From Botryllus schlosseri (lineage: Eukaryota), in NCBI GenBank assembly GCA_051294905.1, contig CM119371.1, positions 14,014,001 to 14,078,000 on the forward strand: a stretch of 64,000 nt of DNA, read 5' to 3'. The notes under the pieces are model-generated. The model worked only from the letters and a program-made list of their open reading frames with translations, ran no database searches and was not told the DNA's origin. This document shows positions 8,461-64,000 of this stretch, in pieces (within the stretch, counting starts at the first letter, position 1; each line of letters begins with the position of its first letter). The translations under genes were made by a program, and so were the position numbers.

Positions 8461-10080
8461 CTACAGCTTCACCAGCACAGATCTGGACACCGCAAAGTCT
8501 TGATCTTCTTCTCGTTTGATGCGACACCATTTGTTGTTCAACAAATCATACTTTACAATGTCATGATAGCAGCCCAGCCCGTCCACTACAAAAATCCAAT
8601 TGCCAATATGATAAGCAGTATCGTAGCCACGATCAAAATTCATAGATGGCAATGAAGTCCATTGTGCTGAAGTGACATCGTAACATTCTACATTGTTGAG
8701 CGTTTTTTTCTCTCTGCTCCATCCACTGATCACAAATATCTTTGGATCAACTGCAACAACACCACAGTCATACGCAGCATATCTCATTGGGTCGAGATCA
8801 ACCCACTCTGATGAGGATGGATTGAATCTGCAGAATGAAGATAGTTCGACGCAATATTGTTCAATACCTCCAATACCTCCGATAGAATAAATGGAATCAT
8901 TCAATGATACAAGACTTGCGCCGCTAATTCCTGTAGGTTTGTTTGGCAGTTGAAACCATCGATTTATCGAGGGGTCGAATCTTTCCACGCCGTTAGTGTG
9001 CATGCGATAACTTCCCACCACAGATATCGATCCGCGCAATACCACCGAGCAGGGGTACTGCCCATGGTCATTAATCATATCTTTCATCTTTTCCCATTCT
9101 GAATTTTTTCGTTGTAAATTGAGTCGATGAACGGACTTATCCTGACATAAGACGTAAATATGCGAGTTCAGAAAAATTGGAGTGAAATGAAGTAGATGCC
9201 TAAACTTTGTATTGTTGAACATGGTGATTTTCTCTGAATTCGGATTAAAGGATCGCATACAATCCATGTCCAAGTCAAAAAGAATCAATAATTCTTTTTT
9301 GTTTACCAGTGCAACTGATGCTTCCTGAATATGTTCACTGATCAACTTGTACGACTGGGAGTCATACCTGATAATGGGGTGAGTTTTAAGGAGACGTTGT
9401 AAAATTTCCAGAGCGATTCTATCAAAGTCGATCAATTTGAGGAATTCATGCAAATGTCCCTTCTTCTTTTCACATGTCTCAATCCACTTGAGCGATAACT
9501 CTAATTTATCTTCTTCCTATAATGTAGTTTCTGAAGACTTCAAAACATGGAAAATGTCATCCTTTTCCACGCTTCCGAATCCGGAATGGTTTGCGATTTC
9601 CATGATATTTTCTCGTAAAAATGTTCTGCATCGAAACGTTACATCGTCCAGTCCGTAAATATCACCAGCATTTCTTGCGGAGAAGTAATTCTCAATGGTA
9701 ATTGATTCTGCCAAATTATTGGATATTGCATTCCTTAGACGTTCCAACTGCAGTATCGCTGCGACGTGAAGAAGTTCAATATTTTTTCCATCCGGAATCT
9801 CATATTTACTGGAATATATAAAATCGATGCAAATTTTCACACACTCGGAATCGACATCTTTGAAAACGACTCTTCCTTCGCGACTCTCCTTTGTGTCGTG
9901 CTTTAACATGGCTCTGAAATAATCCGAACCAGCCGACAAAACATTTTTGTGGGCGTGACAGACATCATTTCCGACTTGAACTACGAAATCACAATGATCT
10001 TCATCTTGTTTCATTCGATGTAATTCCTCCAGCATTCTCACTGCATATTCCTCCGCACCTTCACAAACAAACTGCACCAT
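8461..10080 (-). pseudogene. Intronless Kelch-like (BTB-BACK-Kelch) gene, ~539 codons, interrupted by one in-frame TAG at 9517-9519
   Basis: BTB motif CDFVVQVG..HAHKNVLSAGSDYFRAML; kelch repeats (IYSIGG, VERFDPSINRW, VECYDVTSAQW). ORFs 9517-10089 and 8461-9453 are in the same frame and read TTL*EEDKLELSLKWIE across the gap. Confidence 0.88.
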
Positions 10081-11278
10081 AATTGCCACTTACTCGTAAT
10101 AGATATACAATAAAGACTAGTGCTGGTCAAAAATAAAGTGATTATATTACATATGTTCAGTCATAAGAAGTCAAAATACACCTAAATGAGTCTGCGCTCG
10201 AGATTACCGGGCCACGATCTGATATATCGATCGGGTGATCCGTCACATGCCATCTTATTTGTGAGAGAGAATTTTTTTTTTTATGCAAGCTGTGCGTCAT
10301 TCAATACAATGATCCAAACAATTCATGCGACTCTAACATTATGTAGCCTACAATGATTTGAAGGCCGAACATTTTTAAAACTAGATTTCAAAGATTTATG
10401 CGCTGCTCTAAATCCTCAATCCAATACGATTCGTAGCCTTGGTGTCGCGTACTATCACAGCAGGATGTTAACTGACATTCATAAGCAATGCCAATGCAAT
10501 GTAGAGTACATGGTCTATCAATGGACCAGGTAATAATAATAATAATAGATTTAGAGAACAGAAAACGATCTAGGATGAAGTGATGACTGAAGACAATAAA
10601 CAATTTAGACTTTAGCGAGATCATTGTTCAGGTTCAGGCTATCGCATATCACAAAACATGCATCATAAAGTTTTCAAATAACGAAAACAAACTGTCACAA
10701 GAGGGGTGTTTTCCGTCTTAGCAAAATTATACTGCTTACGACAAAAAATAACTGCTATCTATGACCGCTAACACTATCACATATAGCTGCATCATCGAAT
10801 TTTTCTATTATGGTATTATTAATAAAGACATAGCCTACATGTTCTAACACAGTGCTCTTCAACCTTTTTCGACGTGGTACACCCTTTTAAGGTTTGCTCA
10901 AAACTCGTACACCCCTGTTCATTAGGGGTCTTCAAACATGACTATTTTTCTCAAATCGTACTGGCTACTTGATAAAATTGTTAGGTTACCTAACTTAAGC
11001 CTACACACCAAATTTGGTTCAATTCCAACTAGTAGCCGCCTTGCTACGGGAGAGGAAAGTTTCTATTTACTATACAAAAATAAATACCGAAAAATTTGAA
11101 ATTTTTCTGTTCACCCCATGAAAGTATTAGGTTGTCTATAAAAACTATGTTCTTCAAATTTGGTTCAATTCCGACCAGTAGAAGCGAAGGTATTGCCGTC
11201 AAAAAAATGGATTTGAATAAAATAGTATTTGGTCACAGACTCTATTCGCAGCCAGTTAGGCAGCCCGCCACGCAAATT

Positions 11279-49606: not shown

Positions 49607-50469
49607 TCTGTAAGAAATGTGACTTTGCTGTTTGCTACAGCCTCTATTGTGCCCCCTAGTGTCACTTAATAGCACTGTCGGAATTGAACGAAGTTTGTTT
49701 AAAAGTCTTCATAGCATATATATAATTTGAGGTTACCATATTTTGGAATCGGGAAAGGAGGACCAGACAAATCACGAAAGTCAGATTGCCGGACTAGAAA
49801 ACTGCTGATTCTAAAATATGTACTGGAAATCTTATTGCGTTGACCAAAAGAATAAAAATGTCATCTTTTCAGCTCAAGTCCTGCATTACCCACTTTTTAT
49901 CGATACTGCTGTGGTGTTGACCGAAATAAAAAAGGTCATTTTTCCAGTCCCGCACGAACGTCCGAATTACATATTTCACGTCATTTATGGCGTTTTTTTG
50001 TTCAACCTCTCCATTACCAGGCTGTCAAAGCTATAAAGGACGAATTATTTCCAAAAAGGATGTCATTCATCCGATTTCCTGAAAAAGAGGATAAATCTTT
50101 CTAAAGCAGGACGTGTAGTAACCTTGATATAACTTCTCCGAAACGAGTTGTATGCTACTTTTGAAGAGCTTCGTACAACACTTGCACTATTGTGAAGTAC
50201 TTCCGAAATAGACCATAAACTCTCTATTACAACACCATGCAGAAAATTACGTCCCAAGCTTCCAAATGAATTTAAAGCTAGAGATGGTATTTTATTTAAT
50301 TAATTGATGGACAAGCGTCTAACTTTCTTCATTTTTGAATTGAGATATTAAATTTGAAACATTACTGCTTGAGTAAGCAGTAGCCTACAAGTTACCAAAA
50401 TCTACTTAAGAGCTCGGAAAAAGTAGAAGTGATACGGCATTGGAGTTGTTGCTTTGATGCGTTTCAGAT

Positions 50470-50870
50470 GCCGACAAGATAGCGTAATGGTGAAGCGTCC
50501 GGCTTCTTGATCGGTAGGTTGTGAGTTCGATCCCCGGCCGGGTCAGACCAAAGACCTGATTAGTAACACTGGTATCCATGACTTCCCCGCTTGGCGCTCA
50601 ATCCGCTCATGCATTACTGGGATAGCATGGAGGAGTGATGCAAGACTTACAAAGTCGTACCCGGCTATATCTGCACCTTCCTTGTCCAGCGGCATATCCA
50701 CATCATGCACTCATGGTATGCATATGCACAATTTGTGTGTATATATATCACGAGTCGGTGTATATACCGCAAAAACATCAAGGACAAAAATAAAGTACGT
50801 CCTTTCCTTCCTTCGAACCGCCAACGTAGCGAGTGGGAAAAATCTCTATCAAATATCACATAACTGTTAA
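50470..50870 (+). mobile_element. tRNA-headed SINE family B
   Basis: A box tagcgtaatgg, B box gttcgatcc, then cgggtcagaccaaagac; antisense head at 32000-32108; 3' limit approximate. Confidence 0.7.
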
Positions 50871-50917
50871 CGATCCCATCATCCCAATATTGATTCTTGT
50901 CATTTTCTGGGTTTTAG

Positions 50918-51045
50918 TCGAGTTCCCGGCTGTGATTTTGGACGTGGACACGGGTCTTGTCGCCGACGAATTTCAGAAGTTTGTCAGGCCCACTGAGAAT
51001 CCGACATTGTCCGATTTCTGCGTGCAGCTCACAGGCATTACACAG
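50918..51045 (+). CDS. ERI2: ERI2-like exonuclease, exon 4 (IEFPAVILD...FVRPTENPTLSDFCVQLTGITQ)
   Basis: ttttag acceptor, cag|gtatag donor; in phase with exon 3; conserved ERI-1 family block. Confidence 0.92.
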
Positions 51046-52063
51046 GTATAGTAGAAATCTGTTGCGTGCGGATATAAACTGTGGCCATTGTGTCTATTTT
51101 CTAAAGGGGCACTGATCTCTAATATGATGTGGTCTTAGATGTTCGCCAGAAATTTTGCAAAGGGCTATGACTAGTGGTGACCTTGATATAAGAGTTACGT
51201 GGATTTTCATGGTATCTTCCGTGAAAATCTTATAGCTGCAGTGCCCCTTTAATATTCCAACTAACTGCACCAAACCATGACGATGACCTTTCATGTTCAT
51301 GAACAAGACTCGCATTCATGCCAGCTCAACCGTGACAGTGAGTCCCTGTATGTGGGATCAGTAAATTTAATACTCTAATCTTCAATTCCATTCATCACAT
51401 TCGAATTCAAAAATTGGCTTGAGCATTTCTTTGTTTTAATTTATGCGCTGAAGTTGACATGGCGTACTGTACAATTGATGCCTACTGTCAGGTTTGAGGA
51501 ACAGATTTGCAGTGTCCATCAAGGCTGTTAACTGTCTGGCATCGGCGATTTTTTCCGAAAAAGTTTGCTTCACTTTTCAAAACTGTAAAACACGACGTTA
51601 ACGGGATGCGAAACCAACAAGTAATATATCGTTGGATTCAGAATTTCAACGCCTAACCAAGTACGCCACGAAGCTAGATGAGAGCAGGGCAACCGAGCTT
51701 GTATATAATCAAGAAGACTAGATAACCTTGTTGTAAAAATAGGCAAGTTTTGGTTACTTATAGAGTTCACAACTTAACTTGGTGTGGATAAGTACATGCT
51801 ATTCACTGCGACAGAGATGTCTTCTTTCAAAGAAGCCATGAGTGACCACTTTGGCTCAACTAATTCGATCGTCAAGAACATCACACAACAGAACACTGGT
51901 ATCACGATTCACGCCTGATGACGGCACGTGCATTCTAATTGGGCAACTAATTGTTTTTCTAAAAATACACAACTAGAACTTGACTAAACAGTGCAGGTAG
52001 ACAAAACTTGAGTGCTTCGAAAAAGTAGAAGTAGGCCTACTTCATAATGTGCACCCTGTACAG

Positions 52064-52857
52064 TAGGGCTGTTCAAAAATGACTTTTCTGACATTGTACT
52101 AGCTGCCTGATGAAATTATTAGGTTACCTAATTGAAGCCTGCACACCAAATTTGGTTCAATTCCAACCAGTAGCCACAACCTAACAATTTCATGGAGTGA
52201 ACAGAAAATTTTGAATCTTTTTATATCCGTTTTTGTTGATGGATAAAAAAAAGCTTCTTCTCCTGTAGCAATGCGGCTAATGGTTGGAATTGAACAAAAT
52301 TTGGTTTGCAGGCTTTAATTAGGTAACCTAACAATTTTATCAAGCAGCCAGTACAATTAGACAGATAAAATCATTTTTGAACACCCCTACTGTACACTAG
52401 TTTCGTTCAAAACTAACTTTTTGTTTCAAGTTTTTGCGGATATCTGATGAAATCTGCACTCCAAATTTTGGCTCAATTTCAATCACTAGTATCGAAGTTA
52501 TTGGAGTACGAAATTTCGAATTTATTTAATGAAAACAAATAATTTTTTTCAAATTTTACGATGCACAACAACCAGTGGAAGCGAAGTTATTGACGTTCAA
52601 AATTTAGGATTTCAAGTCATAGTAGCCAGTATGGGTAGGCTATTCATGCTGGGCAGATCTATAATGGTACATGACCAATTGTGCATAAAGTGTGAAATAT
52701 TATTTTTAACTGCGTACTCATCTTATATTCACATTATAACCAATTTTGATGGATTCTAATTGAGCCAAATTTGTTGCGCATCGTTTTTTTTCAGGTAACC
52801 TAACAATTTTTCAAGTAACCAGTAAAATCTGAAAAAAATATATTTTTGAACAGCCCT
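52064..52857. mobile_element. GGGCTGTTCAAAA-family MITEs (complete short copy 52064-52389 plus a further arm)
   Basis: Family TIRs at 52064, 52375-52389 and 52843-52857. Confidence 0.7.
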
Positions 52858-52946
52858 GGTGTGTAGTGTACAGTATACCCACGCACTCTGTCACATAATA
52901 AACCAGCTTGTGTATTTTTGCCTGTAATCATTAGAACAGTCATCAG

Positions 52947-53358
52947 TAGGGCAAGTTTTTGCAACTTTTGCAACTTTTCTTACAGCTTCCGGCAGCTTCC
53001 TAAATACTCGTAAGATATGTAGAATGCTGTTTTAAGCTGTTTAAAGGAATCTTATAGTGCAACTTTTTGCAACTTTTGTCCATTTTTTTCATGCAACTCT
53101 TTGCAACATTTTGCAACTTTTTCGATTTTTCATGAAAGTATTTTCGGTTTTGGTGAAATACACGGCCAAATTCGACTGAAACACCGTAAATCAGCACCGA
53201 AGTACGGGTATTTCGGGAGCTGAGCCGGTAAATTGACCTTTATTTTTTAGTCAACCGAGCAAAATGTGGTCTTTTAGTGCAACTTTTGCTACTTTTGTCA
53301 AAATTAAATAAATAAATGCAACTTTTCGCGGATTTAACTGCAACAAAAACTTGCCCTA
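52947..53358. mobile_element. hAT-type MITE with TGCAACTTT repeats
   Basis: TIR tagggcaagttttt/aaaaacttgcccta; perfect TSD gtcatcag. Confidence 0.9.
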
Positions 53359-53684
53359 GTCATCAGTAATCAGATATATTTTGTGTAATGATAGACAGCC
53401 AAACCTTATCGTGAAGTGATCAGCTGTAAAATGCGCTTGGGATGAATACCGTTGTACTTTCCAATATATTGCTATGTGATTTAGTCTGGCTAATACGGGG
53501 GTGTAATTATGTTTCCGATTTTGTTTTGCAGCTGATCTCTTCGTGATACAAGATTGTTCCGCTCGCAGTATAATCACGCAAGTACTCCGAAAAACAGACA
53601 TAATTTTGCACGGTTTAACGTGGATCTCTCGACTTTGACCATGTCCATCGCAAGCTGTATCTCACCTATCGTTTTCCTTGTATA

Positions 53685-56600
53685 ATGGATAATGCTTCTT
53701 CTACGCTGAGAAAAATGGTTGTGGATAACGTTACCTTCGCGAATGTGAAAGAACCGTCGATGGCGGAAATGCCTAATATTTTACCCGATCCCGTGCTGGA
53801 GTCAGCAAAAGCATTGCTGGATTCGTTGACAATGTCGACTACTAACTTGGCTAAGATGTTAAAACCTGTTCCGTCACCTGTTAAAAATGGTACGTCCGGA
53901 GCCACTGTAAACACCAACACAATGCCCAATAGAGATCCTATCAAACAAGAACGGCGAAGTGGGTTAAAAATAACGAATCATGGACTTAACAAATGGAGAC
54001 CTGCCGTCATGCCGAGAACACAAAACTCAGATATGAACATGAGAACGACCATAGAGTCAAATCAGATCACGTTAACGTTAGAACCTGTAGAGCCAGACGA
54101 CAGCTTCTCATTACGTAACGTACCTTACTACGCTAGGGGCCGGCCTGCGGCAGGCTTCCACGCCCAAAATTTTCAACAACTCGAAGACTCCAGCGCTTTG
54201 GACCAGTCTAAAATCTTTGAACGGTGGCACCGTAAGCATATAAACAAGATTTTACGGTATGCCAACAGAGGTAGTACCACAAAACCAATCACTTACAACA
54301 ATAATAGTAAGTTGAGATATGGGTGGAGGCCGTACCAGCCGCCGCCACTAAACCGAACCTACAGCAATGCAGTAGGCGCTGGTCAGAAGAGAAAGTATTG
54401 TGATGTCAGTAATCGATACTATCAATACTTGAACAAGCCAAAGCGAGCGCGACACGATGCGTTTCAGATTATTTTCCGCAGTCATATTATCATTGATGAG
54501 GTCGCTCATACAACCAAAACCGACGACAACACTATCTACCCTCGAAGATTCGTGACTTGGCCCAGCGGTAAGCCGGTGATGCCCGGCTACCATCCCCACA
54601 AAACCGGGGTCAACTATAAAAGAAAACCGTTTTTAAAGAAGAAACGCACTTGGAGTATGTACCGCGTTCCCCGGCCAAAACCGCACCCGGTTTATCGCGT
54701 GCCCCCAAATCGCTACGCGCCGCCTTCGAGCCTGAGAAAAATGTGGAATAAGAAATTGTCTTCTGAGAATAGGCTGAGGTGGGATCCGGCTACTAAAAAG
54801 TTCACTCTGGCGCCAGTGTACCATAGGCCGGTAAAGCCTGCGGCTAAGCAGTGGTTCAGATTCGCCTCAAACACAGCGCCAAAGAACGCAATCACCAACG
54901 CCTTGAATATGTCCCGAGCGTCGTCGATCGTTTCGCAAATGCACAGAAAGCACTCTACTCCCGCGCTCAAAACGCAACACAACTGGCACAGGCCCGTCTC
55001 TTACAAGCCACCACAAACCTACAAACCAATACTCTCTTACAATGCGCCACCCGCTTGTAAACCTTCACTGCCGTACCAAAACGTCTTGCCGCCTTCCGTG
55101 CATTACGTCTTACGGGACCTTAGAGTTATTTTACACTGCAGCAGTGTTCCCGACCCGAGTTTCTTCAACAGCTACAGGAATTACGCCACGAGTTGCGTTC
55201 TGTTTCAAATCAGAAGGCTGATGACCGTGAAGCTTTTGAGGCAGGGTAGATACGAAAAAAGAATTGCGGAAATAAAAAAGAATGTAGACTCTGATTCTGC
55301 GGATGGGCCTGTTGAAACAAAACCGGTTCTTCGCAACAAAATGGTCACGTCATCTGTTTATATTAGTGACTTGACGGAGAAGGCTCTGTCCCAGTGGACA
55401 TCCGATCTTCCTAAAGAGTGCGGTGTAGGAAGTGATCATCCACTTCGCGGGAAAGAGTCTTCCTTATCGGGCGATTGGTTGCATGTTTGCAAAGGTAGGG
55501 TCGTGGACAACATTCCTTTTCGCCCGTCCGAAGACCATGAGCCCGTGCCTGTGAAAAATGTGTTCTTGGCTTGGGCTTTCGATGAACCTCCAAACGACAC
55601 TGTGTCTAGCAGTCGTATAATCGATGCTGGGAAGCCCTCCCCAACGAAGGGCGCGAAACAGCGCGAACTTCAAGTCGGCGAATCCACGGATCGCAATTAT
55701 ATGCTGGCTGAGGGGGTCAAATCAGCAGCTTCTTCAAATCCGCATTTGTCTCAGAGCCAGGTACCAGTTCACCGCCATGGCGCCATAAGCTTTAGGAAAA
55801 GGAGCAGGGCGTTGCCGAAACTTAGTTTTTGTGTCAGATTCCGGTGCAGTCTTTGCACGCGCGATTGCACCTGCCGATTTGACCCCATTTCGAACGCAAG
55901 GTCCGATGTTTGGAACAGCGCGATGTCAGAATTACCCTCCTCGATCGACGAGAGGCGTAGAGTGGTTGACGAAAGCGAGGTCACGGTCAGCAACGGCGCC
56001 CAATATAATTCCGGCGTTACGGAAACGAACCGAAATGAGCCCGTTTTCGAGACTTCTCAGGCCGACGCATCTGGTATACTCGTTAGCGGCAATGCACATT
56101 TCTTGGACACAAACCCCATCCGAATCGGGTTAAACCCTGCAGAATCGATCACGGACGGCACAAGTCAATCACAAGGGAGCGCTTTGGAAGGACCTGGAAG
56201 GTCTATGTTCAATTCACCAAACCACAGATCGGCGTGGGTATTATCGGCCGTCAAAAAAGACTGTTTATTCAGGTCCGATAAAAGATTGATGTCTGAGCTC
56301 AGTAAACACGTGAACGCAATGTGTCGCGGTGCATTAATAAATTATTCTAATCCAGCTGCGTCCACAGCTTTTGACTGCTATGCCGCGAAAAGAGCGGCGT
56401 CGCAAACCGCAGTGAGCGATGTTAGCGCTGGAGGCCATTGCTCGGCTGTGATTGGCCGCGATAGCCTCGCAAGCCGGCAAGCCAACAACCGTACCGTCGA
56501 GCTTCATCGCACACAGCCAACGGAGTGTGACTCCGGCAACAATGCGTCTCTCAAACTCGATTCCGTCGCGGACTCTGTCGAAGGCATGGGAAACAACTTA

Positions 56601-57558
56601 TTAAGGCAGAAACTGCTGTGCGGCGTTACTAGTATATTGCAAGTTAGCGACTGTTCCGAGGGTCACCCGTTTATATTGGGTACAGGGATAGGTTCGGTGA
56701 GCCGTGGTATCGATACGAAAGGCGGACTCTTTTGCCCCGTCAACGGGAAAAGTAACGTAAACTCGCAAACTCAGTCTGATGAACCTGCTGACAGTGAGCT
56801 AGCTCGCGAATCGCACGAAATTAACGGCGGCAGCGGCGCGTGCGAGTCGTCGCGACACTGTAACGGCGATGCTGCTATTTTTGAAGACATACCTTCCACT
56901 TGTTTGCGGTCTTACGCCAGCTCGCCTGGCGATGATAACCGTAAAGGTTCAGTGGTAGCCGAAAGCGATACAGCCGTCGCTTCAACCCCACTCAGTAGTA
57001 ATGCGGAATATACGCGAAACGGTTGTGACGAAACAGTGACTGTCGCTGGCAAGTTACCTGTGCCTGTAGCGAAATCGCGTCAAGCGGCTAAGCCCGCCCG
57101 TGTTTCTCTTAAAAATAACAAGGCAGATACGGCTTCCGCCGAAGGCAAAATAAAGGACTCTGTCAAAACTAGATCGTCGCATCGTTTGCGGTCGAGATTA
57201 AAACGTACGAAGCGCGGGCGGTACGAGACGGACTACATATCCGATTTTCCCAAGGCTGCCAAAAAAGCCAGGAAGATACAGCCTACCAACGATTACGACA
57301 ACGGCGATTTCTGGAAGTTTTACGACAGCTGCGAGAACACGGTGTACGCGCAAAATCTCCTGCTGCAGTACAAGTATGTTAAGCTGTTCAAGGCGAAAGG
57401 CATTACTGCGGAGTGTGCGCCGACCGTGGTCGGGATTTGGGACACGACCACCTACGATTCGTCGAACAGAAAGCGTCCGGTTGTGCCGGAGGATGGGAAA
57501 TTAGCCGTTTTGGAGAAGTACACCAGGCAACGGAAAATGCCGGACCTGCAACAAACAG
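53685..57558 (+). CDS. Large exon of an uncharacterised, probably nuclear and largely disordered protein (reads to a stop at 57596 if unspliced)
   Basis: 1303-codon ORF, GC-richer than its flanks; upstream acceptor ttttgcag ends at 53531; donor CAG|GTATTG at 57558/57559; basic clusters; no recognised domain. Confidence 0.8.
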
Positions 57559-59341
57559 GTATTGTTGATTTAAAATCTTACGTGCTGTCACTTTGAGGGC
57601 GTACGCGCCAACCTGTTTGAACTCGGTCTTGTTTACATTAGGAAGCGAGTAAGCTTCGTATCGCAATATAGCTTAAAACGCCGCTTAAACTCGAGTTTGG
57701 GAGCAAAATATACTGTTGTGAAGTGTACTTGTACTGTTGTTAAGTTTGGTTTGTTAATACATTCGTTATTCCCCAGACGGACGGACTGGTCCTCCAATCA
57801 CGCACACACACACACCTAGCTTAGAATGTGTAAATAACAGGCGTTCACATTGGATTTAAAATAACGGAAGATAGCATAAAACAGACAAGCGATCAAAATG
57901 AATTGGCATGTGTTGATTGGCGAAATAAAAGTGTCCTGGTAATCTCGAACGCAGACTTTTATTCGTTCCGTTCCGTAAAATCTGCTTGTATTTTTACTTG
58001 AATGTGAACAAACGGACATGCTCCGTCTTCAAAAGCACCCGAAACTGAATTTGGGAGCAAAATACAACGGCCTGTAATGCTGTAATTCATTCGATGCGTG
58101 CGTAGATCGATTATATCTCGCTTTTAAAAGCGCGTTCCTGCTCTTTTGACAGGATGTTATCAATAGTTTCGTGACACGCAGTGCTTCTATAGCGATTCGA
58201 TTCGTGTCTCAGCAAGTTGCAACCCCTAACTTCGTAGAGGTAATTCCAAAGCGCTGTTACTAACGCTATGATTTAATAATACGACTACTACTAATCACCA
58301 AATGTCCCGCTGGCGAAGCCCTTGCGCAAAATGAGCATCGAATTTCATGCGGTAAAGTTGACTCATTCGTGCCGGGAGTTATTTTGGGATGAGATAAAAA
58401 CTAGACGCGATTATTCGCTGTTGTTATTATGGTGGGCAGTGTGCATAAAGACCGTCATGGTGTTTGGTTTCCTTCGCCAAAGATTCCGCGTTTTGAATTG
58501 GTCTCATCAACGAAACTCGATCCACCAGTCTTAGTAATAGCTTCAAAACGGAAGCTGGCCACATGTTTTTCATATTTAGACTATAGTTATACGCGACTCG
58601 GCGTATGGAACAAGTTAGCTCTCGCGAAGTAGGTCCTTAGCCGCGTGTGTAGTTGTAATTTCGTCCGCGACCTATATTTAAATTCAGGTCGGAATCAGTA
58701 CCATATCTTCTGCAGTCGTACGCCGATATAAGGCCCGGTGTCTTTGTTGACATGGATACTTAACACAAAATCAAAGACCTGACCAACAACTGTGTTCCTT
58801 AGATCAATATTAACAATGTTCTAATGTTTGCTCGACCGTCAAACCAGTGGTAGCCGTATCGGCGATATATTTGTGATAAAATAATGCTCCAATCGCGGCC
58901 TTGTAGCGCCATCGATACCACAAAACTCGCTGTCGATTTGTTGTCCGGAATCTGACGATATTGATCCCAACAGGCCCAATAAACGTCCTGGCCCACTCAT
59001 GATCAAACTGTTTTCTGTGTTAGGGCTACTGCGTACGCTAGCTTACGTCACTAAAATGCCATTACCTATTTGTAAAACAACAAATGTCAGCTAATATCCG
59101 CACCCTACGTTTGCTTGAATTTATTCTCATTTTAACGTCTAATTAATAGGCTACGTTTTGCATGGGCTTTTTTTCAATGCAATCTTAACTTTCGATGCAA
59201 TACGACAGTTATGATATTGACGTTACTAAACTGCCCTTACCAGCTACGCCGCCTATTTGAAAAACGAACAAATACATCACAGAACAACAAAATTCGGCAA
59301 AAAACACGTGTTTATTTGAATTTCTCTGTTACAACGTTTAA

Positions 59342-60779
59342 CCCTTTGTAACCGGCCGGCCTCCTGACCAAAATTTTACCTCACCCACATAAAAAACGAT
59401 AAAATGTCATCCATATGACTTAAATCGACCCCCAATATATTGCCGTAAACCTGAAGTAGCCGCCTAGCGGTCTGAGATACTCTCGCGGCTCAGACGCCAG
59501 AGGGAATAGCGTTATGCGAGAAAATGTTCTCGGTTTCTTGAAAATAAAATACAATTTTGTTCTTCTATATCTCCTGACGTCATACCTAGGCCCTCTCTTA
59601 TAGTATATGACCACCTGATTGCTTTCCGCATGAATCCCTACGTTCCAACGAGACATTACATGCTACTATAGCGCTTCATAGCCCAGCGCTACGATCTTGG
59701 AAAGGTACAGATGATAAGCACAATCACGTGGCCGCCACCGATGAGTAATCGATTACGTAATCTCGTATTCTCGCTGAAGGCAACACGCGTCCAGTTCGAC
59801 ATAACATAGTAACTGCCTTGGCAATTTTGCCGTTAGCATACATCTCCATGCTATTGAAGTGTTATCAACCCCAGTTGCTTGTTATATGTAACTTGCAACT
59901 GCAAGGGATCCGTAAGTATACGCAATACGCATATTGCCTTATTCGACACTGCCTAGTGCCCATATACGCTCGGGAAGTCATTTCATGTGTTGCATTGCTT
60001 TATTTCGCATCAATTTGAACTGTATTCTACACCGCTAATGTTCCATGTATGATCAACAGTAGTCATAGAAGCCAACAGTAACTTCGTGTGCCATCTAAAA
60101 CAGATATATAACTGCCTCTATATGATGTTGTTATCACAGGCTCGGGTACAAAAATAGCCTAACTCGCACGCTTATTTGTGCGGCGTTAGGGCTGGTGTCG
60201 GCTTTCTTATACAAAACTAAGCTCCATGATAGGGATATTGATGAATATGCCAGGATAATGGCTAACCATATGTATAATTTGCTATTGCCTGAAGCAATTG
60301 TACATCTGTTTGAAACCGCAACGAGTCAGGTCATCTTACGCAGCCATGATTTTCACGTAATAAGGTATGCTTCTTTCGCGTCAATTTGAAACATATTCTA
60401 CGTGCTAATCTTCGATATAAGGACTTTCATAGAATAGTATGACCAACAACAAGTCATAGAAGATAACTGTCATCGGTTATATGACGTCTAGAACGGAAGA
60501 TACAATGGTTTGTATTTCAGGCGGTCACTCACGCGAACATCATTACAAGTTCAATTTTGCGGGAAAAATTTTTGCGTGTTCAATCTGCATTTCAAGCAGG
60601 ATATACATTGCCACATTAGGTTATACATGGTCTGACGTATGCGTATTTATAAGAGCAATACATACAAAGCGATTGCAATCGTTTATGACCAATACAGGTC
60701 TAGCTATCTTGGAATGAATATCGACTCCTCTGCGTTAAACAGTCGCGGTCTAGTATACTAGACCGCCGGTCGCAAAGGG
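59342..60779. mobile_element. Non-autonomous piggyBac-type element
   Basis: ttaa|ccctttgtaaccggc...gccggtcgcaaaggg|ttaa; internal diverged duplication ~59930-60130 versus ~60290-60490. Confidence 0.82.
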
Positions 60780-62331
60780 TTAATGACTAGATTTTGCGCG
60801 CTGCTTTCTAAATGTGCCCTCAGCGGCCGATACAATGCAATTATGATATTCACCTTACTAGAATTGAACATATCAAATGCGGCACCCTAAACGGGTGTGA
60901 AACCTATTGAAAAACGACGAAATCCAGAAAAGATCTACTGCGTGTTGGTTCAAATTTCTCTATGCTTGAACGCCAAACTGCTAGGTTTTGCGTTGACCGC
61001 TCTTTAAGCACGCTTCGTACGTATGGTATATTTAATTATTACTGCCAATAGTAGGTGTCTCGCCACGCCGTATTTTTGCACAAATTTATAACTCGCACGA
61101 ACACAAAACCCTTGCAGGTCCGTAGAGCCTCGTACCATACTCACTGCCGAGTGCCGACAATTGTGATATTAAAGTTCCTACTACGAGATTCGGCAAAAGT
61201 CCACACCGTGTTACCCTGAATTTCGTTGTATTTCAACATATGACTGCGTTTTGCGCGTTCCTCTTTATGCCAGCACGCTTCGCATGTGTTGTATTTTGGA
61301 ATTATCAATTGTCGTGATACGTCCGTAACGAACTTTTAGATTAGTTCGTAGCTCTCACGTATACTATGCAGCGTAGGCCTGTGTAGAGGCTCATATCCGA
61401 ACTACCTCCCGTACGATACGGCAATCATGCGGCGGTGGTCAGTAAGGAAGTCTTCTACTTTTTCGAAACAATCAAGCAGGCATTTGTTGGAGTAGTTATG
61501 ATTTTCGACTGCTTCCGCTTCTCCTTGATAGCTTTCGGTTATATAGGCGATAATAGGCCTGGAACACATGGATTTTTTACTTACTCGGAAATCGCTAGCT
61601 CGGAAATCGTTTCGTATGTACGATATTTCGAAGTTGCGTTGCGACCAAACTAGGCTTGAAATGCTTGCTTTTCACTCGCTTGACGCCACTTCACTCGTAC
61701 TCTAGTAGAAATTTGAGACGTTACTCGCATTTCTACACTAGTACTGTTCCAATGATGACTGCTTTCACCGCCTTCACCGATAACCTGGTTTTTCGCGAGC
61801 CTAAATTCGATTGTCATACGCACGCCGTAGTTGACAACTAGAAAATCGTCTGCTTTTCCGAATTATGTTAGAGTTAGAATTATAGCTACACAATTTTTTC
61901 GAATTAGATTAGAATTAGAGTTTCTGAGTTCTCAAAAACATGGAAATTAAATTCAATTCCTAATCACGAAGATATTGAACAAAAACTAAGTTCACTTCAT
62001 ACCAAATCACAGATCATTCTCGTAACCACGAGAATGGCAAATGGTAACATGGATACATTTAAAACTTCGATTGGAATTAGATTACCGGCATTCCATTTTA
62101 ATTCGTGTAATTGGATAACTGCAAATGTTTAACTCCAAGTCTGACGCGCGCTTCGTTTGTACGATATTTTGAATTAGCGTCGGGACATTACTAGGCCTGA
62201 AATACTTTTTTACTTGTTGGGTAACCGCTATATCTTCTACTCTGTTATGAATTTGCAACGCTGCTCGCACTTATTCTCGAGTACCAACGATGACTATGAC
62301 TACTGTTCTGTTACCAACTCAGCGATTATAA

Positions 62332-62600
62332 GTGGCGAGATGGCGTAGTGGTATAATCCACGGCTACAACACCAACGGGTTTTGGGTTCGAGTCCGACTG
62401 AGGTCGTCTCCAGAAGTCCTACCTAAGTGTTGGAGGTCTATCAAGGCTCCTCGCCATCTCAACCGTGTGTCTTATGAAAGCCTAGACGTGGGCCGTGCTA
62501 CAAGTCGGCAGCTACGAAATAAGAGTAATAAGAAAATTGACCTCGTGTAAATGACCGTAGTAGTCGAGAACCACCATGAATACCACAAACAAACAACAAC
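62332..62600 (+). mobile_element. Full-length tRNA-headed SINE family A
   Basis: A box tggcgtagtgg, B box ggttcgagtcc, (CAAA/CAA)n tail; copies at ~300-460, ~29690-29895 and ~35262-35542. Confidence 0.82.
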
Positions 62601-62662
62601 TATGCTATTATGATATTTCTGTATTCGGCCAACAACATTTGAAACAACCCCGTGTTTTACAG

Positions 62663-63213
62663 ACGATCAATGCGCGTTTTGCGGCCGGTCATTCGAGGGT
62701 ACTGACAAGGCTGGGCGCGACGAACACGTATCAAGACACGGCGCGAGATACAAGGCGCTAGCGGTGCCGCGTTTGCCCAAAAAGAAAAAGATGAAGCCCG
62801 TACAAAAAGCCGGCAAACCCACGCACCTGCCTCACTCCAGCAACGAAAGCCATCAGGAGGTCGTCGAAACTCGGCAAAACGCGCAGGATTTACGTCTGTT
62901 AGCGAGGCCTTCTTCGTTGTCTATGGGCCATCGGAAGCAAACAGCGAGAAAGTCGTTCACGATCAAGTCTACCTTACCAAAAAACGTGCTGATCAAAACG
63001 CTGGAATGCGAGATGAGATCGCCACCCATTCCGGGCAACGGCAAGAGCGGCGAGTCTGTTTCGGACAGAATTAAAAGAGAACAGCGCGACGCAGACCCGT
63101 TTCAAGGCGTGGGTTCTATCTTGAACGGGTGTTCGCCTTTGGCCGTCGGCGGAAGACGCACCATAACGGGTTTACCCGTGACCTACAATCATTTTCAACA
63201 GGATTATTTATGA
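62663..63213 (+). CDS. Putative terminal exon: C2H2 zinc finger, NLS and H3-like KQTARKS motif
   Basis: Acceptor gtgttttacag ends at 62662; the frame is open upstream of the listed ORF and reads DQCAFCGRSFEGTDKAGRDEHVSRH; phase 1 matches the donor at 57558. Confidence 0.68.
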
Positions 63214-64000
63214 CAAGACTTTTCGCGCTCGAGATAAGAGGGATAGATAGATACTTTTGTGGACCTCGTCTCAGTGTCTGTATTGCGACTATTTGAATTT
63301 TTCTAACGCCGAGCGCCTGGCGTGGCGCGAATGTGATCACTTTTTGTGAAGTATTTTTTGTAAATGATGACGTGACTTCAGAAATTCATTGTAACGCAAT
63401 TACTTCACGTGACGTGTTGATTTTTTTAAATGCGAGTGCGCTTTTCGTTCCATAGCCACGCCGCTGGGTGAGAATTTGGATATTTTCGTTTAAAGATAGT
63501 GTGACTTGTGAAATTCGTTGTGACACAGTGACGGAATGTGACGTCACAACGGTCGGGTCTAAGTATTTTAGATGTCGGTGCTACTTTCGCCCGCAGCTAT
63601 GGCACTGTCGTAGCTTGGATGAATGTTTACAGGGAAGCTTTTGAAAAGTCATTGTGATGCTGTGTACGAACATGACGTCACGATTGCCGAGTCTATAAGT
63701 TTCGAGATGCAAATGCGACTTTCGCTCAGTAGCCACCACTATTGAAGCTGTGATGAATATTAGGTCGCTGTGGAATCGAAAGTAGCTTGTGTCCGTGTTC
63801 AAAATTTGAGAAAGTCACGTTTTTGTAAAAAAAAAATCGGCAATATCTTGGCCAAAATTATGTTTGTCACGTTGTTCCAAAAATAACCATGGCCAAGACA
63901 CGGCCGAAACAGAATGAAAAGTATATAAAAACTTGATCCTCTCGAAATGTGTAAAATGGACACGAGCTACTCCGATCCCTCAGCGACGATTTGGAGTGGA

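Follow-up and report, generated by a model that had tools for sequence, protein, structure and literature searches.

A fast-diverging protein family with a member in Botryllus schlosseri carries an invariant internal peptide identical to histone H3 residues 4-10

Can a short run of amino acids inside a large, poorly conserved protein be a portable copy of the histone H3 tail, or is such a likeness incidental? The question is raised by a gene on the plus strand of a 64,000-nucleotide stretch of the Botryllus schlosseri genome (GenBank assembly GCA_051294905.1, contig CM119371.1, positions 14,014,001 to 14,078,000 of the forward strand). This whole stretch is referred to as the window, and all positions below are counted from its first letter. 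The gene encodes a protein of 1474 amino acids (aa) that contains the heptapeptide KQTARKS. Most of what is known of histone mimicry by cellular proteins concerns four-residue ARKS/ARKT cores, and these occur too often for function to be predicted from them. In the present case, a protein family keeps a seven-of-seven copy of H3 K4 to S10 within an 11-residue block that is the least changeable part of a fast-diverging protein. The gene and its conserved H3-identical peptide are solid, and a function in chromatin may reasonably be proposed.

A preliminary description of the window had proposed a two-exon coding model, and its positions for the open reading frame (ORF), donor, acceptor, zinc finger and KQTARKS all proved correct. 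The ORF list of the window holds a plus-strand frame of 1303 codons at 53685..57596, within which an exon ends in ACAG at 57558 and is followed by GTATTG. The acceptor ttttacag runs up to 62662, and the following exon begins at 62663. When joined by script, 53685-57558 (3874 nucleotides, nt) and 62663-63213 (551 nt) give 4425 nt that read as 1474 codons plus a stop, with no internal stop. Relatives of the protein begin at the place equivalent to the start of the large exon (the MVVEN... block), and a search with the last exon found a single copy of the gene in the 495.5-Mb assembly.

Splicing was assessed by comparing positions 50000-64000 with the public sequencing runs X1 (study P1), X2 (study P2), X15 and X23; X1 and X2 are RNA by the tool's guess only. 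The proposed junction was found in contigs of both studies. It was reported as 57554->62659, 'skips 5104, GT..AG (cut +4)', which equals 57558/62663. One X1 contig carries the joint at a depth of 35.1 with 63 letters on its shorter side, and a 3028-nt X2 contig of depth 59.1 carries it in a placement of 55960-57554 plus 62659-63696. Depth over 57939-59339 within the intron is zero in both runs. The DNA-like run X15 spans the intron (pieces 57459-58224 and 58478-58895, among others) and lacks the joint, and an X2 contig of depth 2.5 at 57548-57702 crosses the donor, as unspliced RNA would. Because the same GT..AG joint occurs in two studies and is absent from the intron-covering DNA-like run, we consider the splice real. 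The in-frame two-exon model therefore stands, with an open joined frame and its junction present in transcript-like contigs.

It could be argued that the gene model is wrong or the locus non-functional, whether through an assembly or transcript artefact or as a decaying pseudogene. The guessed status of X1 and X2 would allow this. So would X23, a raw-read RNA run sampled at about 6 in 100 and too thin to judge, which gave a depth of 0-2 over the gene and no junction reads, and so would the absence of any Pfam domain above cut-off in both exons and in the relatives P0001 and P0002 (see below). These points are countered by the recurrent joint, by a spliced frame that stays open for 1474 codons, by full-length relatives (P0002, P0008 and P0009) that share the order of conserved blocks including the last-exon module, and by the nature of the allelic differences. 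Of 40 differences listed (326 further ones are not in the list), two, at 52685 and 52714, lie upstream and were excluded; of the 38 in the coding region, 22 leave the amino acid unchanged and 20 affect a third codon position, a synonymous bias as expected under purifying selection. An artefact or dead locus is thus very improbable, and we conclude that this is a real, single-copy, spliced gene. As a separate observation, an X15 DNA contig over 53680-55073 has 58 mismatches to the window in 1394 bases, or about 4%. A difference of this size points to very high heterozygosity or population diversity, both of which are known to be high in marine invertebrates.

The protein had initially been called an orphan, a view that must be given up since a family exists. 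With the large exon as query, we recovered P0001 (1331 aa, 33% identity, E 3.1e-195) and P0002 (1647 aa, 35% identity, E 4.8e-142). A full HMMER pass over 1.84 billion representatives with the last exon (182 aa) matched only six proteins at E <= 0.001, namely P0003 (90% identical), P0002, P0004, P0005, P0006 and P0007. Cluster look-up supplied the full-length forms P0008 (1553 aa; P0004/P0008) and P0009 (1760 aa; P0006/P0009). The only named relative is P0006/P0009, the uncharacterized protein LOC120337746 (XP_039261558) of the ascidian Styela clava. It is a true relative of the window protein, with the same block order, the same finger and an identical MGHRKQTARKSF, at about 25% identity over the first 620 residues and 39% over the last exon; the 1760-aa Styela protein has a longer tail behind the conserved island. 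Overall, relatives are few and fast-diverging (24-46% identity, with P0003 near-identical), and the earlier characterization of the protein as fast-evolving and lineage-restricted fits as far as the searches reach, given that only six of 1.84 billion representatives match the last exon. Full-length P0002, P0008 and P0009 keep the block order of the window protein, last-exon module included. P0001 diverges from the other members at the window's intron residue and then terminates, as would be expected if an intron in that place were kept in its transcript. A profile search whose word pre-filter drops known members returned P0002 and P0001 only. A distant vertebrate relative of the family may exist.

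KQTARKS is encoded at 62935-62955 (aa 1383-1389), which makes K1388 the equivalent of H3 K9 and S1389 the equivalent of S10. The genome's own H3 (L016, in a tandem array) starts MARTKQTARKS; thus, the seven-of-seven identity asserted in the preliminary description is to residues 4-10 of the organism's own histone. When the 11-residue block MGHRKQTARKS was aligned by BLASTP with codons 1-11 of H3, 8 of 11 positions were identical, Met included, and the likeness ended there. A histone fold is absent, with no match to the Histone family in Pfam scans. The family peptide is also internal (aa 1379-1389 of 1474), unlike that of H3, which sits at a free N-terminus.

MGHRKQTARKS (M87-S97 of the last exon) is invariant in all seven sequences, that is, the window and six relatives, and the family-wide alignment shows it identical in 6/6 sequences. 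Outside these 11 residues, the last exon of the window shares 24-41% identity with five distant relatives and 88% with P0003. Seventy-two columns are filled in all seven sequences; 17 of them are invariant, and 11 of the 17 are consecutive. None of 200,000 shuffles of these columns reached a run of 11, the maximum being 8. The block is the longest invariant run of the family, followed by YLNKPK and KRGRYE with six residues each. The expectation that KQTARKS would be an island conserved among varying neighbours is therefore borne out, with 11/11 identity in all six relatives against the low identity around it in the five distant ones.

The bare heptapeptide is a weaker observation than its invariance. 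Amino acid composition predicts 9.3e-6 occurrences of KQTARKS per protein of such size. A degenerate DNA pattern for the heptapeptide, run over six frames of the 495.5 Mb, gave 27 matches, mostly in H3 arrays, and the reversed control gave 3. Because the control still finds matches, the 7-mer as such is not beyond chance genome-wide; its invariance in relatives places the constraint on the peptide above chance. This invariance is no proof that the constraint comes from being read as H3. At the nucleotide level, 17 of the 21 bases in the seven shared codons match an H3 array copy. The mismatches are confined to third positions and the flanking sequences have no likeness, a comparison that speaks neither for nor against ancient capture of an H3 gene fragment. 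The H3 tandem array itself (G000:C8:28366195-28423662) has a period of about 5.8 kb and at least 9 copies with identical motif codons, and further H3-like copies reside on other contigs. Among the titles listed by a literature search, none describes an internal seven-of-seven H3 mimic in a cellular protein; those listed for the 7-mer concern H3 peptides.

Known non-histone H3K9 mimics include the G9a/GLP automethylation sites, WIZ, ATF7IP K16 (bound by MPP8), SETDB1 K1170/K1178 and LIG1 K126 (bound by UHRF1). By analogy, our tentative reading, which we rate a little below an even chance, is that the family peptide is an H3K9-type motif which, once methylated, becomes a ligand of chromodomain readers. 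MGHRKQTARKS(F/Y) would act as a short linear motif with K1388 as the substrate of a SUV39-family H3K9 methyltransferase (G9a/GLP, SETDB1 or SUV39 type). The methylated peptide would be bound by chromodomain readers of the HP1/CDYL/MPP8 class, S1389 next to K1388 may serve as a phospho-switch, and the peptide would in this way tether the rest of the protein to the heterochromatin machinery.

Several features are consistent with this proposal. According to section 3.1 of PMC8541646, the Arg of the G9a site TARKSTG is essential and is preceded by a hydrophobic residue such as Ala, and the Lys is followed first by a hydrophilic and then by a hydrophobic residue. The residues of the family fit these rules as that section gives them, with T-A-R-K-S at aa 1385-1389 invariant in 7/7 and the Lys followed by Ser and then by Phe (6/7) or Tyr (1/7). 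Like H3K9 mimics, the family combines an A-R-K-S/T core with a predicted disordered stretch in a probably nuclear protein. As described in bioRxiv 10.1101/2025.10.22.683908, methylated H3K9-like motifs at SETDB1 K1170/K1178 recruit HP1-gamma, CDYL and SUV39H1, and a methyl/phospho switch is discussed for them; in the family, too, the serine beside the lysine would allow one. Recruitment of chromodomain proteins by methylated non-histone H3K9-like motifs is likewise described for ATF7IP-MPP8 and for G9a automethylation (PMC6172828, PMC2175347). The family differs from known H3K9 mimics in that its H3 identity spans seven of seven residues, K4 to S10, rather than a four-residue core. It also differs in the invariance of an 11-residue block, and its methylation and reading are predicted only. 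A sequence relation to the known mimic proteins was not found in Pfam and PDB searches. The family thus extends a known principle to a further protein, unrelated to the others, in which the H3 copy is of unusual length and invariance.

The genome encodes candidate machinery for such a motif. The Pre-SET domain has three matches, and the chromoshadow (HP1-type) domain has two matches at one locus. Cellular chromodomain genes are L002 (CBX-type, with a CBX7_C motif), L003 and L004. The last of these (G000:C13:1240263-1243409) is intron-poor, and its product has a chromodomain at the N-terminus and, behind it, over 500 residues with much Lys, Ser and Glu; the layout is reminiscent of MPP8/CDYL-type readers, with Chromo the only confirmed domain. 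Complex prediction with the L004 chromodomain (70 aa) and last-exon residues 66-125 gave a score of 0.36, in the weak band, versus 0.02 for the best of three controls. The runs had a contact agreement of at least 86% and a partner predicted local distance difference test (pLDDT) value of at least 55, with the lysine unmethylated. The score mark is reached by 51 of 78 solved complexes versus 2 of 108 mismatched pairs; at scores of 0.60 or under, it is reached by 5 of the 78 solved complexes and by all 4 passing mismatches (of 180). Because complexes of H3 peptides with chromodomains have already been solved, the pass may reflect structures memorised by the model.

A number of results weigh against a methylated H3K9-type motif, beginning with the weak-band position of the complex score. 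Only 7 of about 38 conserved island residues are identical to H3. Neither the invariant M-G-H-R that precedes them nor the conserved helix that follows has an equivalent in H3, so the whole island may form a larger binding element to which the H3 identity is incidental. An RKS with an aromatic residue after it would also suit basophilic kinases well. With the reversed pattern giving three chance matches, scanning many windows could yield such a coincidence. In PMC10611923, a four-residue R-K mimic motif is counted in over 17,000 human proteins. No chromatin-linking domain was found for the family in Pfam, PDB or the ESM Atlas, and no PxVxL-like motif occupies the same column in three or more of six aligned sequences.

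This last result also bears on LxVxL motifs of the large exon, which the preliminary description had linked to the HP1 chromoshadow domain. They are not conserved in relatives. LRVIL aligns to IHVIF, IHDIF, VKMIF and IREVF, with V, V, D, M and E as the central residue in the five covering sequences, and MTVKL aligns to MSARA, VSFKA, MAAKA and VSFKA. Given this non-conservation in the family alignment, the chromoshadow idea was rejected. Of the chromatin-adaptor interpretation as first put forward, the gene model, finger, KQTARKS conservation and fast evolution have held, and the orphan status and the LxVxL/HP1 link have fallen away.

In the main rival reading, the peptide is a basic docking or regulatory motif with another job, its H3 identity a coincidence of composition and constraint. 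Such a motif could be a basophilic-kinase site (Aurora or PKA type) whose binding depends on phosphorylation, could anchor the protein through an arginine to the acidic patch of the nucleosome, or could contribute to a bipartite signal for nuclear import. The island extends far beyond the H3 part, with RPS..S-MGHR before it and TLPK..LI..LECEMR behind it, and the leading M, G, H and R share the invariance of KQTARKS yet are unlike the A-R-T of H3. The protein is rich in K (7.2%), R (7.7%) and S (10.3%), making Lys, Arg, Ser and Thr common, and the chance control yields three six-frame matches per genome. Kinase and anchor motifs, though, usually fix three to five positions, as opposed to 11 consecutive ones in a setting of 24-41% identity. 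Moreover, the exact match covers the entire K4-S10 segment, and its expected frequency per protein from composition is very small, as given above. We regard a basic motif of this kind as a quite possible explanation, clearly short of an even chance.

The methylated-motif reading has a more far-reaching form, in which the 11-residue block is a non-nucleosomal H3 tail on which the full H3K4/K9 machinery would act, with its writers, readers, erasers and phospho-switch. This idea stems from the codon-for-codon alignment of the block with the start of H3, Met included. Such a tail could seed or buffer heterochromatin at whatever sites the N-terminal blocks and finger recognise, such as repeats in the ascidian germ line or early embryo. 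In a bolder variant, the Met at 62923 could also be an internal start, giving a 96-aa protein with a free N-terminal H3-like peptide. We consider this extended form unlikely.

A decoy or competitive regulator is, in our estimate, slightly less likely again. By this account, the protein would be a soluble H3(4-10) surrogate that titrates H3K9 writers, erasers or readers on the principle of EZHIP (CXorf67), with the lysine retained. As described in bioRxiv 10.1101/585729, EZHIP is lineage-restricted, largely disordered and poorly conserved as a whole, and an invariant 12-residue H3-like peptide close to its C-terminus, its most invariant element, inhibits PRC2. The present family is likewise lineage-restricted and largely low-confidence or disordered in models, and its most invariant peptide is H3-like and near the C-terminus. 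EZHIP, however, copies the K27 region with Met for Lys and inhibits its enzyme, whereas the family copies the K4-K9 region and keeps the Lys in 7/7, with no Met, Ile or other inhibitory residue. Retention of the Lys makes the peptide look like a substrate, which argues against a decoy. Unlike EZHIP, the family also has a zinc finger and many other conserved blocks (about 600 N-terminal and about 130 further residues), which suggest a scaffold with several partners. In addition, expression appears low (word depths 3-59), a poor fit to a stoichiometric sink.

If K1388 is methylated and read, as in the reading that we tentatively favor, the family would offer an unusually clear example from nature of how H3K9 writers, readers and the S10 switch act outside the nucleosome. 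A new heterochromatin-linked factor would then also be known in tunicates, which among invertebrates are the nearest kin of vertebrates. If the lysine is not methylated, the family is a warning that even an invariant, exact match to a histone tail can be coincidental.

The remainder of the 1474-aa protein, which is probably largely disordered and nuclear, carries short conserved blocks (Table 1). Invariant blocks in the first ~600 residues include LTLEP, YLNKPK and KQWFRF. In the cysteine cluster, C716, V717, R718, R720, C724, D727 and C728 are invariant among three sequences, and the CVR run is invariant in five. A variable middle separates this cluster from the C-terminal blocks of the family, where KRGRYE and RLRS are invariant in 6/6 sequences. 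AlphaFold2 modeling of window aa 1-620 (5-row alignment) gave a mean pLDDT of 36.9 and no confident fold. For the C-terminal 483 aa of P0004 (9-row alignment), the mean pLDDT was 43.8. Within this model, the equivalent of the C-terminal block of the large exon forms two predicted helices at a pLDDT of about 50-57, and a predicted helix (residues 402-415, block pLDDT 67) lies right behind the H3-like peptide. The peptide itself falls in a low-confidence stretch of the model and is probably disordered.

The best-modelled part of P0004 is the equivalent of the finger, with short strands followed by a helix at a pLDDT of about 76-77. The two Cys and two His are kept in 5/5 sequences covering the site, which agrees with the initial assignment of a zinc finger. 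The classical C2H2 consensus has 12 residues between the second Cys and first His, and the spacing here is 13 or 14. Pfam scores for the finger also remain below cut-off, with zf-C2H2_4 matched in 3/7 members (best E 0.0029), zf-C2HC_2 in 2/7 (E 0.017) and the window copy at E 0.25. On sequence grounds, the finger is best named C2H2-like. The lysine-rich PKKKKMK stretch is a likely nuclear localisation signal.

Other candidate resemblances were set aside. Two Pfam matches, DUF4125 at E 0.01 and DpdA at E 0.0079, miss the cut-off and were judged to be chance. PDB searches by sequence and by profile gave no match better than E 0.98 and 3.6, respectively. In the ESM Atlas, whole P0002 and its residues 1300-1647 scored 0.82 and 0.86 at best, under the lead level of 0.9. 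The rows retrieved there are assorted C2H2 proteins (ZNF512/512B, ZNF644, ZNF821 and TRPS1); they were rejected as kin at these sub-lead scores and give only a hint of a disordered nuclear zinc-finger protein.

Table 1. Features of the gene, in window coordinates
Feature	Position	Strand	Basis or content
5' untranslated part of large exon	53532..53684	+	acceptor ttttgcag ends 53531
Large coding exon	53685..57558	+	aa 1-1291 plus first base of codon 1292
Conserved N-terminal region, aa 11-620	53715..55544	+	short invariant blocks, alignments
Conserved cysteine cluster CVR.R...C..DC.C, aa 716-730	55830..55874	+	alignments
C-terminal block of large exon, aa 1162-1241	57168..57407	+	RSS.RLRSR, KRGRYE, FW.FY, helical NL.LQ..YIKLF
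Intron, 5104 nt, GT..AG, phase 1, with repeated elements	57559..62662	+	joint in X1 and X2
Last coding exon	62663..63213	+	aa 1292-1474 and TGA stop
Solitary C2H2-like finger C-x2-C-x14-H-x3-H	62671..62739	+	ligands conserved
Lysine-rich stretch PKKKKMK	62776..62796	+	K/R run here in 6/6 sequences
Conserved island RPS..S-MGHRKQTARKSF-....TLPK..LI..LECEMR	62905..63018	+	alignments
Invariant 11-mer MGHRKQTARKS, aa 1379-1389	62923..62955	+	alignment of 7 sequences
3' untranslated region, at least to 63696	63214..63696	+	X2 contig extends to 63696

The 5' leader contains an upstream ORF of 14 codons at 53641-53685. Its TAA stop shares one base with the main ATG (TAATG), an arrangement that could place translation under termination-reinitiation control. 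An X2 contig starts at 53529 with 27 unplaced letters at its 5' end; together with the ttttgcag ending at 53531, this indicates that the large exon probably follows a 5' exon or spliced leader. An Rfam scan of 50000-64000 gave zero matches.

High-copy repeats at 50467-50933, 51868-53268, 59340-60740 and 62142-62608 flank the gene and occur inside its intron. Against a single-copy level of about 80 in X15, word depth over all four stretches is higher by factors in the hundreds to thousands. One of these repeats stops about 55 bases before the acceptor, and the repeat at 50467-50933 is heavily transcribed in X23. Elsewhere in the window, a 380-codon open frame on the plus strand at 13660-14802 resembles a retroelement polymerase tail and had no Pfam match at E <= 0.001. 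An intronless ORF for a GNAT-type acetyltransferase (Pfam Acetyltransf_1, E 3.4e-07) occupies the plus strand at 19063-19947; a word-indexed search of 5.8 billion proteins returned no relatives of it at E <= 1e-5. On the minus strand at 8461-10089, a BTB/BACK ORF (9520-10089) and a Kelch-repeat ORF (8461-9516) lie in the same frame with one stop codon between them. The pair is either a KLHL-type gene that relies on a tiny intron or on read-through, or a copy that broke recently.

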